DNA from: a virus
Taxonomy: Duplodnaviria > Heunggongvirae > Uroviricota > Caudoviricetes
Reading direction: 5' to 3' (one strand)
Length of the DNA stretch: 64,000 nucleotides
IMG/VR virus record: IMGVR_UViG_3300029415_000001
Positions 21,203-27,503 of this stretch are shown piece by piece. The notes under the pieces were generated by a model. The model was given only the letters and a program-made list of their open reading frames with translations, searched no databases and was not told where the DNA came from. A program made the position numbers and the translations under genes. Position 1 is the stretch's first letter. Every line of letters begins with the position of its first letter.

Positions 21203-21284
21203 TGATTTTTAAAGCAGAGAAAGTGAAAATAAAAACATGCCGCAAGGCGCGGCATGTATCCAATCAATCACAGGAGCTGAAAAT

Positions 21285-21371
21285 ATGAACACGGCATTCA
21301 AAATCATTATGGCCGCGATCTATTTCTGGCTGTTCTCTATCACTTTTGGCGGCATCGTCGCGCATGGGTAA
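21285..21371 (+). CDS. 28-aa hydrophobic peptide (candidate small membrane toxin or leader peptide)
   Basis: CAGGAG RBS 7 nt upstream of ATG; MNTAFKIIMAAIYFWLFSITFGGIVAHG; preceded by C1 operator and a CATGCCGC-AAGG-CGCGGCATG hairpin. Confidence 0.3.
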   Translation: MNTAFKIIMAAIYFWLFSITFGGIVAHG

Positions 21372-21449
21372 GGGAGTATATTAGCCATTTGGAACCCCAC
21401 GGTCTCATGCGGGTTTAATTAAGAACCCGCAAGAAAAACACGAATTAGG

Positions 21450-24566: not shown

Positions 24567-24687
24567 AGCGCATCCTTTGTGCCGCCTGGCAAGAGCCGGA
24601 AGGGCGTTAAGAGTGACTTCCGGCGCGTAAAAAATAGTCTATATACTGACCGGATGTTAAGGTGAGCCGGTCTGTAGCAATGGTCAA

Positions 24688-25944
24688 TTAATTACTGACA
24701 GTTTTGGGTTTTGGGAAACTGAACAGTAAATCACGATAGTACTCGTATTGTTTCTGGCGCAACTCGATTTCACGCGGAAGACCTTCGGTAATCGAATTTG
24801 TTAAGACGTCAAATTTGTCGAGAGTCGCTGCGATTCTGGCTTGTTCGTTATAAGATTCCTCCGGATTACCGGGGCATGGGAAGGGGATTTTAATGTCTTT
24901 GAGCATCGGTTTAGTTAGCTGGGGTATGCCTGCCTCAGGGATTTTGTAATTATTCTCAATGGTTTTCATGAAGTAATAAGCGTACTTCAAGTTTAATTTA
25001 ATTTTTGGCGTCAAGACCAGCAGTCGCACTATCGGAAAGAATGGTCTACTTCTATAGCTAGTCCATCCAATAGTACCTCTTGCAGATATGGTGAGACTCG
25101 GTTTCTCAATCTTGGCTCTGTCAGTCCATCCATATAGTGATTTATTACCTATACCGTTTGATAAAACGGGGATGCTGAATTCCTCGGTCTCAAATTCGGA
25201 TAAGGCATCTTTTGGTGCATCGCCGCCTGCAACAATGTCAAAAACATCATCCAATGCCTTCCACTCAACCTCACCCTCTTTAAAACTCAACAACTGGTCG
25301 CGATAGTAGTTGTACTGTTTTTTACGCATGGTAAGCTCAGCGGTAAGCTCAGCGGTAAGCTCAGCGGTAAGTGCAGTAAATTTATCCAGAATCCGAACGA
25401 TTTCAGACTGGATGGCAAGGGATTTTTCCGGGGTATCTGGGCAGGGTAATGGGATTTTGAATCTTCCCATTACGGCTGAGTTCAAGTTGTTAATGGTTGA
25501 GCTATTCAACATTTCATCAAGATATTTTTGGAAAATATCACTTGTTAAAACGTGAAATAAATAACGTGGATTTAATTTTTCATCGCATCTGACGACCCCC
25601 ATAAATCCGCCAAAGTAGTAGTCAATATCAGATTCTATGTAAGCAACTTTACCGACATGTTCACGGCTACCACTTGCTGCGCTAATTAGAATGTCGTTCT
25701 TATATAGCTTTTGCGAACTCTTTACTTTGGTGTCGAACCTCACCACCTTGACATCATTTAAATTTAAACAATTATTAGACAGCGTGATATTGTTAGCGCG
25801 AAGCACTTTATAGCCTTGACCATCCGCGCTTTCACTCGATTTGCTATAAATTAAACCACGTACATATTTTGCGACTTCTCCGAGAGTCTTCCACTCAACC
25901 TCAACCCCATCCAGCAATTTTTCCAGATAACTCATCTCGCTCAT
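24688..25944 (-). CDS. hsdS: type I restriction-modification specificity subunit with central TAEL tandem repeats
   Basis: 418 aa; two target-recognition domains separated by [32 protein letters not shown]; C-terminal conserved [20 protein letters not shown]. Confidence 0.85.
25330..25377 (-). repeat. 12-bp tandem repeat (GGTAAGCTCAGC x3 plus one variant) encoding (TAEL)n in the HsdS central linker
   Basis: Direct tandem copies visible on the plus strand. Confidence 0.9.
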
Positions 25945-27503
25945 TTCTGCACCTCGCAGCCTTCAATTTCAGCCACAATCGCATCAATATCTTTGCGCAA
26001 TTGGTCGATTTTGCTGACCGTGGTTTTCAGCTCTGCATTCAACTCAGCGATATCGATAATTTCGCGAGTATCTTTCGCTTCCACATAGCTGCTCACCGAC
26101 AGGTTATAGTCATTAGCGACAACGGTCTCAAACGCGACAGATTTCGCCAGATGAGCAACATCTTCCTTGCTGGCAAATACCTGCATAATCTGGTCGATAT
26201 GGGCATCGGTCAGGATATTGTTGTTAGTCTCTTTTTTGAACAGTTCGCTGGCGTCAATAAACTGAACGTTGGTATCCGTTTTATGTTTAGACAGAACCAG
26301 AATGTTTACGGCAATGGTGGTGCCAAAGAACAGGTTCGGAGCCAGTGAAATCACGGTTTCGACATAGTTATTGTCAACCAGATACTGACGGATTTTCTGC
26401 TCCGCGCCGCCACGGTAAAAAATACCCGGGAAGCAGACAATCGCAGCACGACCTTTGGCCGAAAGATAATTCAGTGCATGTAGTACAAAGGCGAAGTCAG
26501 CTTTTGATTTGGGGGCCAGAACGCCAGCCGGGGCAAAACGCTCATCGTTAATCAGCGTCGGGTCATCGCTGCCAATCCATTTCACCGAATACGGCGGGTT
26601 AGAAACGATGGCATCAAACGGTTTTTCATCTCTGAAGTGCGGTTCAGTCAGCGTATTGCCCAGCTTGATATCAAACTTGTCGTAGTTGATGTTGTGCAAA
26701 AACATGTTCATACGCGCCAGGTTATAGGTCGTATGGTTGATTTCCTGACCAAAAAAACCTTCTTCGATGATATGGTCATCAAACTGTTTTTTCGCCTGCA
26801 ACAACAGCGAACCGGAGCCTGCTGCCGGGTCGTAGATTTTGTTAACGTTGGTCTGCCCGTGCATAGCCAGTTGTGCAATCAGCTTAGAGACGTGCTGCGG
26901 TGTAAAGAACTCGCCGCCGGACTTACCGGCATTCGCCGCATAGTTAGAAATCAGGAACTCATAGGCATCGCCGAACAGGTCAATCTGATGTTCGTGGAAG
27001 TCACCAAGTTTTAGCCCTTCAACCCCTTTCAGAACCGCAGCCAGGCGGGCATTTTTATCTTTAACGGTGTTACCCAGGCGGTTACTGGTAGTATCGAAAT
27101 CAGCAAACAAACCTTTGATGTCAGCTTCTGAAGGGTAACCGTAAGCAGAACTTTCGATAGCAACGAAGATGCTGTTTAAATCCGCATTCAGTCTGTCATT
27201 GGTATTTGCTTTCGCAGCTACGTTGCAGAAAAGCTGACTGGGGTAGATGAAGTAGCCTTTGGTTCTGATGGCATCGTCTTTAATGTCATCAGTAATAATG
27301 CCGTCATCAAGTGCCGCATAACAGATGCTGTCATCACCATTTTCCATATAACTGGAAAAATTTTCGCTGATAAAACGGTAGAAAAGTGCGCCCAGAACGT
27401 ATTGCTTAAAATCCCATCCATCGACAGAACCTCTGACATCGTTAGCAATTTGCCAGATTTGACGATGAAGCTCTGCACGTTGTTGAATACTTGTCATTTT
27501 CAT
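25941..27503 (-). CDS. hsdM: type I restriction-modification methyltransferase subunit
   Basis: 520 aa; N6-adenine MTase motifs [10 protein letters not shown] (motif I) and NPPYS (motif IV); ATGA overlap with hsdS. Confidence 0.9.

Follow-up and report, generated by a model that had tools for sequence, protein, structure and literature searches.

In the 64,000-nucleotide stretch of DNA analysed here (the window), three genes of a type I restriction-modification (R-M) system lie on the minus strand between two blocks of DNA homologous to phage P1. The left flank carries pap (20680..21186, plus strand), which encodes a HAD/PNKP-type phosphatase (Pfam HAD_PNKP) and aligns collinearly with P1 pap (97% identity), and the right flank carries the phd-doc addiction operon (27680..28281, plus strand; phd 27680-27901, doc 27901-28281; Pfam PhdYeFM and Fic/DOC), which is 98% identical to that of P1. 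The initial annotation had likewise placed the hsd genes between a HAD-phosphatase gene and phd, but its limits of 21203-27503 needed correction: BLAST breakpoints against NC_005856, together with the junction sequences, delimit the non-P1 DNA to 21375-27603 (6229 bp, no strand assigned). Also in agreement with the initial annotation, this segment is richer in AT than the backbone, with a GC content of 43.8% versus 48.4% in the rest of the window. The breakpoints correspond to positions 84481/2 and 87969/70 of reference P1, which between pap and phd carries the gene set pmgT-pmgU-pmgV-upfM/N/O-hot-lxr-humD; in the window, this pmgT-humD block is swapped for the hsd cassette, and P1 84482-87969 has no counterpart either at the slot or in the P1-aligned parts of the window. 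Conversely, synteny comparison found the cassette absent from reference P1, as expected from the proposal that it lies outside the canonical P1 gene set. A repeat finder detected neither direct nor inverted repeats at the two borders of the cassette, and transposon-like ends were therefore rejected. A search for Rfam structured RNAs in 20500-28400 returned no match at E<=0.1.

Each of the three hsd genes has a match among the PADLOC type I models. The first, hsdM (25941..27503, minus strand), encodes a 520-aa m6A methyltransferase subunit (Pfam N6_Mtase and HsdM_N) that has the AdoMet-binding motif and the NPPY motif (as SNPPYS) and is identical to EcoR124I HsdM (PDB 7bst_D) at 509 of 520 residues (97.9%). 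The hsdM stop is overlapped by 4 bp by hsdS (24688..25944, minus strand), encoding a 418-aa specificity subunit with two Methylase_S domains (Pfam). Finally, hsdR (21450..24566, minus strand) encodes a 1038-aa nuclease and SF2 translocase subunit with HSDR_N, SWI2_SNF2, T1R_D3-like, and EcoR124_C domains (Pfam; E 8e-72 for the last), which aligns over its full length (1-1038; 2257 bits) with EcoR124I HsdR (PDB 2w00/7bst) at about 97.5% identity, with 25 differences among the 968 residues compared. The stretches holding the catalytic motifs of HsdR (PD-(D/E)xK nuclease, GSGKT, and DECH) are identical to those of EcoR124I, and we take the nuclease residues to be D151/E165/K167 in EcoR124I numbering. 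Because HsdM and HsdR, which also have the same lengths as their EcoR124I counterparts, are ~98% identical to them, and with the EcoR124_C domain of HsdR in agreement, we uphold the assignment to type IC, applying only sequence similarity from among the hybridisation, complementation, and high identity by which type I families are set.

On the minus strand, the gene order is hsdM, hsdS, hsdR, divergent from phd-doc, and hsdR is set apart from hsdMS by a gap of 121 bp. This gap contains the promoter-like motif TTAACA-18-TATTTT (24631..24660, minus strand), a candidate hsdR promoter from the consensus scan only, which fits the two-promoter organisation of type IC loci. The cassette-specific 100 bp upstream of hsdM (27504..27603, minus strand), divergent from Pphd, are the presumed hsdM promoter region; the consensus scan found no strong consensus promoter for hsdM. 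Probably, the hsd genes are transcribed as two units. Accordingly, of the hsdR-hsdS-hsdM operon described initially, the three intact genes stand, while the order is hsdM to hsdR and a single unit is doubtful.

The left flank holds several smaller features. At 21186..21202 (plus strand) lies a C1 operator OpmgT (Op88)-like site, ATTGCTCTAATAAATCT, identical to the annotated P1 OpmgT sequence; in P1, OpmgT overlaps the PpmgT promoters, and in the window PpmgT faces the 3' end of hsdR. A terminator-like hairpin on the hsdR strand, with a 10-bp stem followed by a T-run (21235..21257, minus strand), is a candidate from the consensus scan only and lies inside the P1-homologous flank, while a second hairpin just 3' of hsdR (21408-21432) was dropped as a terminator because the T-run is missing on both strands. 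Lastly, a hydrophobic 28-aa ORF (21285..21371, plus strand), with its stop 3 nt before the left junction, is conserved, being intact with 0-1 substitutions in P1, phi456, 673R5, and two plasmids.

Specificity subunit and related type IC systems

The N-terminal, central, and C-terminal conserved regions of HsdS match those of EcoR124 HsdS; the target recognition domains (TRDs) do not. TRD1 (aa 21-160; 25465..25884, minus strand; 37.6% GC) has 100% identical copies in many HsdS alleles with other TRD2s, some of them in the second TRD position, and TRD2 (aa 227-358; 24871..25266, minus strand) has 100% identical copies in many alleles with other TRD1s. Because neither TRD is related to its counterparts in EcoR124, for which the target halves are GAA and RTCG, the target differs from that of EcoR124. 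We rejected two routes to a recognition sequence: AAC from EcoKI, because TRD1 is only ~30% identical to EcoKI TRD1, and names in the protein collection, because these are either generic or assigned by similarity ('EcoprrI subunit S', in an unrelated genome). The exact HsdS was absent from the protein collection.

Tandem Repeats Finder and a repeat finder both identified a 12-bp tandem repeat of 3.5 perfect copies (25330..25371, no strand assigned), which encodes three TAEL repeats in the central conserved region of HsdS. Because the number of TAEL repeats sets spacer length (PMC3874165), three repeats predict a target with a 7-bp spacer. Repeat number varies among relatives: a near-identical hsdS allele in plasmid p1002-1 (strain Z1002) has two TAEL repeats. 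A two-repeat version of this TRD pair is found in NZ_CP021203.1, in which HsdR and HsdM are identical to the proteins of the three-repeat plasmid NZ_CP027133.1.

Among characterised systems, the cassette resembles the type IC prototype EcoR124I/EcoR124II (plasmids R124 and R124/3) in the gene order M-S-R, the equal HsdM and HsdR lengths, the TAEL-bearing HsdS frame, and the P1-derived DNA on its flanks, and shares the three TAEL repeats with EcoR124II. Unlike R124/3, for which the P1 annotation gives homology only for 84399-84482, the window has a full P1-like backbone; at R124/3, an IS1-linked deletion reportedly removed the rest of the P1 DNA, as Tyndall and colleagues are said to have described in 1997. 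EcoprrI, another type IC system, also has P1-like flanks but differs in carrying prrC between hsdS and hsdR, whereas neither prrC nor any other ORF was found in the 121-bp gap of the window. Both EcoprrI and EcoDXXI have three TAEL repeats, as in the window, and the EcoDXXI target is TCA N7 RTTC (PMC3874165). At EcoDXXI, where the upstream flank corresponds to P1 87969-88647 and the downstream flank to 84263-84482, the breakpoints equal those of the window within 1 nt. Indeed, the window breakpoints coincide with the misc_features that mark the EcoDXXI and R124/3 hsd flanks in the P1 record, and the window has the P1-flanked type IC layout, with phd-doc upstream of hsdM and P1 DNA resuming 3' of hsdR at a fixed point. 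The title of a 1997 paper (Tyndall et al.; reference 364 in PMC12707154) states this P1-flanked type IC hsd arrangement. The P1-flanked type IC cassette is, therefore, known since 1997 and is also present in the annotation of reference P1.

Distribution of the cassette among plasmids and phages

A search of PLSDB gave 397 plasmids with 80% or more of the 7.7-kb region. The exact left junction was counted in 262 plasmids, the right junction (hsdM/phd) in 715, conjugative ones included; among 5426 complete E. coli genomes, 405 have the region. Setting these 397 plasmids against the 26 with the full reference-P1 arrangement was rejected as a measure of imbalance because it overstates it, the latter number being low because pmgT-humD itself varies further inside; the junction-specific counts are 262 for the hsd left junction versus 261 for the pmgT left junction. 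hsd is among the commonest states of the pap-phd slot in sequenced E. coli plasmids. The pmgT-humD block is one of the variable regions listed for P1-like phage-plasmids (PMC9603915). Judged by single deletions, the five essential genes include none of pmgT, pmgU, pmgV, and upfM.

The region is mosaic: window positions 22000-26000, with all of hsdS, match NZ_CP027133.1 (a plasmid of E. coli AR_0372) at 100% identity, against 96-98% for hsdM and the flanks. In addition, 100% identical copies of hsdR and hsdS occur in many independent plasmids. Two deposited P1-like phages, phi456 and vB_EcoM-673R5, also have the cassette. In phi456, an IS5-like DDE transposase (Pfam) lies inside hsdS, which rules out a PrrC anticodon nuclease as the content of the ~1.2-kb longer phi456 locus; the annotation of vB_EcoM-673R5 shows hsdR and hsdM in fragments. 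Because of this insertion and fragmentation, not every copy of the cassette is active.

Dar genes and the role of the cassette

The initial annotation also drew attention to Dar anti-restriction genes in the same element, and all six (ulx, darB, ddrB, ddrA, darA, and hdf) are full length, with ORF lengths as in P1. ulx (41246-41686) and darB (41720-48487; 2255 aa) span 41246..48487 on the minus strand, collinear with P1 9752-21539 at 97.9% identity, and ddrB, ddrA, darA, and hdf (995, 121, 639, and 203 aa), which belong to the P1 dar operon, lie within 56882..62776 on the minus strand, collinear with P1 24146-31660 at 97.9%. Dar works in cis, on the DNA that the virion injects (PMC12707154). 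In the reviews and P1 literature searched, the Dar protection described concerns type IA and IB enzymes only, with no account of Dar versus type IC enzymes; Dar is, thus, a putative counter-measure to the type IC enzyme. The pairing of weapon and counter-measure in one element is normal for P1 and not a paradox because reference P1 also combines an R-M system, the type III EcoP1I, with Dar. Moreover, because Dar shields injected virion DNA and R-M acts in the lysogen, the two complement each other, and there is no contradiction in having both.

Like reference P1, then, the element pairs an R-M system that serves the lysogen with Dar proteins that are packaged in the virion for its own DNA; unlike in reference P1, the R-M system is of type IC and lies in the pmgT-humD slot instead of being the EcoP1I res-mod. 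The P1 res-mod slot is occupied by a gene for a 435-aa SIR2_2 protein (39642-40949) and, therefore, the window has two defence-cargo slots, in line with the at least two suggested initially. We note that the fixed P1-like slots in the window hold the SIR2-like gene (res-mod), a porin and a transposase gene (isaA-IS1-isaB), and the type IC R-M genes (pmgT-humD).

Our preferred reading, to which we give a probability of roughly 0.88, is that the cassette encodes a complete, apparently functional type IC R-M system of the EcoR124I family, an accessory cargo that occupies one of the known variable slots of a P1-like phage-plasmid; its completeness follows from the intact hsdM, hsdS, and hsdR with all catalytic motifs. 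By analogy with type I enzymology, an M2S1 complex in the lysogen would methylate adenines in a bipartite target of two half-sites separated by N7, and on an unmethylated target R2M2S1 would hydrolyse ATP, translocate DNA, and cut at a distance, so that phage or plasmid DNA entering without the modification is destroyed. Homologous recombination, in the conserved flanks as well as inside the conserved hsd genes, probably spreads the cassette and its hsdS variants between P1-like backbones and onto other plasmids, with specificity diversifying by TRD shuffling and 12-bp repeat slippage. Dar proteins packaged in the virion would shield the phage's own DNA on entry into a new host.

Other roles can be envisaged. 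If Dar fails against type IC enzymes, the hypervariable hsdS, with its TRD shuffling and TAEL-repeat slippage, could mainly bar competing P1-like phage-plasmids and, in addition, C1-controlled PpmgT, antisense into hsdR, might lower restriction at prophage induction; we regard this proposal as speculative and rather unlikely. It is improbable that the cassette mainly stabilises the plasmid, as an addiction module acting together with phd-doc, and is not for anti-phage defence: it does adjoin the phd-doc operon in divergent orientation, and the hsdM/phd junction moves as a unit through the 715 plasmids, but we found no addiction-specific feature in the sequence, assembly-based restriction alleviation lets type IC systems enter naive cells with high efficiency (EcoSal review, PMC12707154), and the same control would be expected to weigh against the death of cells after loss of the hsd genes. 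The disrupted copies in phi456 and 673R5 might suggest that the cassette is a decaying remnant devoid of restriction activity, being silent or limited to modification; this is very improbable for the copy in the window given its three full-length ORFs of EcoR124I lengths, the unchanged catalytic-motif stretches, and the 100% identity of hsdR and hsdS across independent plasmids. EcoR124I/II switching has historically been rare, which counts against the least probable reading, in which the system is chiefly a switchable epigenetic regulator whose TAEL slippage toggles the target spacer between N6 and N7 and alters host expression. This reading could draw on the perfect 12-bp repeats, the natural 2- and 3-repeat variants of one TRD pair with identical HsdR and HsdM, and the repeat-driven type I phasevarions known in other systems (PMC7383803), yet with only three copies of the 12-bp unit slippage is expected to be rare, and an intact, conserved hsdR is needless for a purely regulatory methylase.

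As a discovery, a type IC EcoR124I-family cassette at this position adds little, having been published in 1997, written into the P1 annotation, and found to be common. Its use lies in annotation: P1-like phage-plasmids have fixed accessory slots, and the content of reference P1 is one of several common states.

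Organization of the cassette and assignment to type IC

As the initial annotation had described, three hsd genes lie between a HAD-phosphatase gene and phd. Specifically, three long minus-strand ORFs encode HsdM (25941-27503; 520 aa; N6_Mtase, E 1e-120, and HsdM_N), HsdS (24688-25944; 418 aa; two Methylase_S domains) and HsdR (21450-24566; 1038 aa; HSDR_N, SWI2_SNF2, T1R_D3-like and EcoR124_C, E 8e-72), with pap (20680-21186; HAD_PNKP) on the left and phd, doc and then pdcB (DUF968) on the right (all Pfam); all three hsd ORFs are also matched by PADLOC type I models. Transcription runs in the order M, S, R and is divergent from phd-doc; there is a 4-bp overlap between hsdM and hsdS, and the 121-bp gap ahead of hsdR contains a promoter-like motif (24660-24631), a consensus-level candidate. 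In BLAST against P1 (NC_005856), window 19100-21374 corresponds to P1 82207-84481 at 97.1% identity and window 27604-29800 to P1 87970-90166 at 98.3%. Because the P1 matches stop at 21374 and resume at 27604, the foreign DNA comprises 21375-27603 (6229 bp) rather than the originally proposed 21203-27503. It stands in place of the pmgT-humD block of P1 (84482-87969). The cassette is AT-richer than the backbone, as first claimed (43.8% GC vs 48.4% in the remainder of the window), with 37.6% GC in the first target-recognition domain of hsdS (TRD1; 25465-25884). A repeat search found no repeats at the cassette borders, and the cassette region matched no Rfam family.

The left junction falls 3 nt past the stop codon of a hydrophobic 28-aa small ORF, MNTAFKIIMAAIYFWLFSITFGGIVAHG (21285-21371, plus strand), which has an AGGAG ribosome-binding site, differs by 0-1 substitutions across P1, phi456, 673R5 and two plasmids, and has no CDS annotated in NC_005856. 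The C1 operator OpmgT (Op88) and the PpmgT promoters (21186-21260) are kept though pmgT is absent, and they face the 3' end of hsdR; transcription from PpmgT would cross the 28-aa ORF and then run antisense into hsdR. A consensus scan also detected a strong terminator-like hairpin on the minus strand (21257-21235) in the flank common to P1.

By every sequence criterion examined, the system is of type IC. HsdM matches the HsdM chain of EcoR124I (PDB 7bst) exactly at 509 of 520 positions, among them those of its NPPY motif and of one further motif of 10 residues. The alignment of HsdR with its EcoR124I counterpart (PDB 2w00; 2257 bits) covers both proteins in full, with 25 differences among the 968 residues displayed; the stretches around the nuclease residues D151, E165 and K167 (EcoR124I numbering), the Walker A motif (GSGKT) and the DECH box are unchanged. 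HsdS has three conserved regions (N-terminal, central and C-terminal) in common with EcoR124 HsdS, but both of its TRDs (TRD2, 24871-25266) fail to align with those of EcoR124. An ORF scan of the locus found no prrC-like gene.

Predicted activity and target

Direct observation establishes which genes and motifs the cassette contains, how they are arranged and where they lie; its activity would be that expected from type I enzymology, with M2S1 methylating a bipartite target and R2M2S1 translocating DNA on unmethylated targets and cutting at a distance (PMC3874165, PMC12707154). Type IC enzymes assemble via an R1 intermediate, which permits entry into naive hosts without killing (PMC12707154), and assembly by this route would suit a gene set travelling on a phage-plasmid. 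This benign establishment also argues against an addiction role for the cassette beside phd-doc, which is possible but disfavoured.

In the central region of HsdS, three TAEL units are specified by a perfect tandem repeat of 12 bp (25330-25371). EcoR124I has two repeats and the target GAA N6 RTCG, whereas EcoR124II, EcoDXXI and EcoprrI have three repeats and N7 spacers (PMC3874165); because three repeats go with N7 in these enzymes, the predicted target is half-site-N7-half-site. The same TRD pair occurs with two repeats in p1002-1 (NZ_CP021203.1; 7091-8335 of locus L005; HsdS of 414 aa) and with three in NZ_CP027133.1 (7091-8347 of locus L006; HsdS of 418 aa), and HsdR (WP_072650946.1) and HsdM (WP_060578235.1) are identical in the two. 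At the sequence level, the pair is a natural polymorphism of the predicted N6/N7 spacer, replaying the EcoR124I/EcoR124II switch. This polymorphism would fit a phase-variable epigenetic role, but the small number of 12-bp units (three) and the intactness of hsdR make such a role unlikely. That the cassette is a decaying remnant is excluded for this copy, as judged from its intact ORFs and catalytic motifs.

Exchange within the cassette and its distribution

Of 120 representatives of clusters of related HsdS proteins, 63 contain TRD1 and 56 contain TRD2 (>90% identity), each with other partners; TRD1 occupies the second TRD position in a few of them, and both TRDs occur together only in P0001 and the partial P0003. 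As read from these sequences, this pairing pattern is the modular exchange of TRDs for which type IC systems have long been known (Gubler et al. 1992, cited in PMC12707154). In the alignment with phage phi456, the two TRDs were the only stretches of the cassette left unaligned. The hsdS gene of phi456 is broken by an IS5-like DDE transposase (6758-7738 of locus L003); the phi456 record labels this transposase 'putative baseplate hub protein'. Compared with NZ_CP027133.1, window 22000-26000 (most of hsdR and all of hsdS) has 0 differences, hsdM (26000-27500) has 60, and the flanks are 2-4% divergent. Because a 100%-identical hsdR/hsdS block abuts divergent hsdM and flanks, the sequences indicate that parts of the cassette have been exchanged by homologous recombination.

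The cassette in this slot is widespread and has been described before. Phage vB_EcoM-673R5 has the cassette at the same position (100% coverage, 98.2% identity), as does phi456 in the phage collection, in which P1, P7, SJ46, D6 and RCS47 match the flanks only, bearing out the earlier suggestion that the cassette lies outside the canonical P1 gene set. Counting records in which one place covers at least 80% of a 7.7-kb query (the cassette region with P1 flanks), we found it in 397 PLSDB plasmids and in 405 of 5426 complete E. coli genomes. A 300-bp probe of the left junction (window 21225-21524) was covered in 262 PLSDB plasmids, the P1-type left junction (flank to pmgT) in 261 and the right junction (hsdM to phd) in 715; the complete reference-P1 arrangement occurs in only 26, because the pmgT-humD block is itself variable.

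The P1 record itself describes P1 84263-84482 as similar to sequence 'downstream of EcoDXXI hsd locus', 84399-84482 to 'R124/3 sequence downstream of hsdR gene' and 87969-88647 to 'sequence upstream of EcoDXXI hsd locus' (misc_feature entries), and the breakpoints that these entries mark are the same as those of the window cassette. Tyndall et al. 1997 (reference 364 in PMC12707154) is reportedly the source paper for the P1 homology flanking hsd loci. In R124/3 the P1 flank is cut at P1 84399, a pattern reproduced by a class of plasmids (e.g. NZ_CP069560.1) in which homology starts at probe position 68 (window 21292, P1 84399). Klebsiella phage vB_KpnS_p4727 carries ~83% identical hsdM-hsdS-hsdR genes (3493-11515 of locus L007; 518, 398 and 1038 aa) that adjoin a 625-aa GmrSD_N protein and lack pap or phd-doc flanks; the type IC cassette thus also occurs, in a different context, in an unrelated 111-kb Klebsiella phage.

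The P1 backbone and the Dar genes

Elsewhere, BLAST shows the window to be collinear with P1 (cre to mat, 36119-39585; lxc, ulx, darB, prt, pro, lyz and ssb, 41003-52791; hxr, ddrB, ddrA, darA, hdf and lyd genes, 56482-64000) apart from two further replacements. A single gene for a 435-aa SIR2_2 protein (39642-40949, plus strand; Pfam E 3e-23), the SIR2-like gene already placed in a separate defence slot, stands in the res-mod slot (39586-41002) where P1 has type III res-mod genes; its PADLOC matches are PDC-S25 (3e-29) and ThsA-like SIR2 (9e-18). The isaA-IS1-isaB slot (52792-56481) is occupied by genes for a Gram-negative porin (53025-54071, minus strand; Porin_1, E 1e-141) and a DDE transposase (54123-55331, plus strand). 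In P1-like phage-plasmids, pmgT-humD, res-mod and isaA-IS1-isaB are variable regions 8, 1 and 2, respectively (PMC9603915). Because pmgT, pmgU, pmgV and upfM, each of which has been deleted in P1, are not among its five essential genes, loss of the pmgT-humD block is not expected to prevent phage growth.

Comparison with P1 shows that none of the six Dar genes is truncated, and DarB and the darA operon are encoded by the same element as the cassette; the initial observation is confirmed and its interpretation factually supported. The Dar proteins travel in the capsid and work in cis on the DNA that is injected. Enzymes they are documented to counter belong to type IA (EcoB and EcoK) and type IB (EcoA and StySA), and the reviews and P1 literature searched contained nothing on Dar action on type IC enzymes. 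Because restriction-modification would restrict others in the lysogen while Dar would shield the phage's own DNA on entry, this pairing is the normal P1 strategy: reference P1 has the type III system EcoP1I beside Dar, whereas the element in the window has a type IC system instead, in a different slot.
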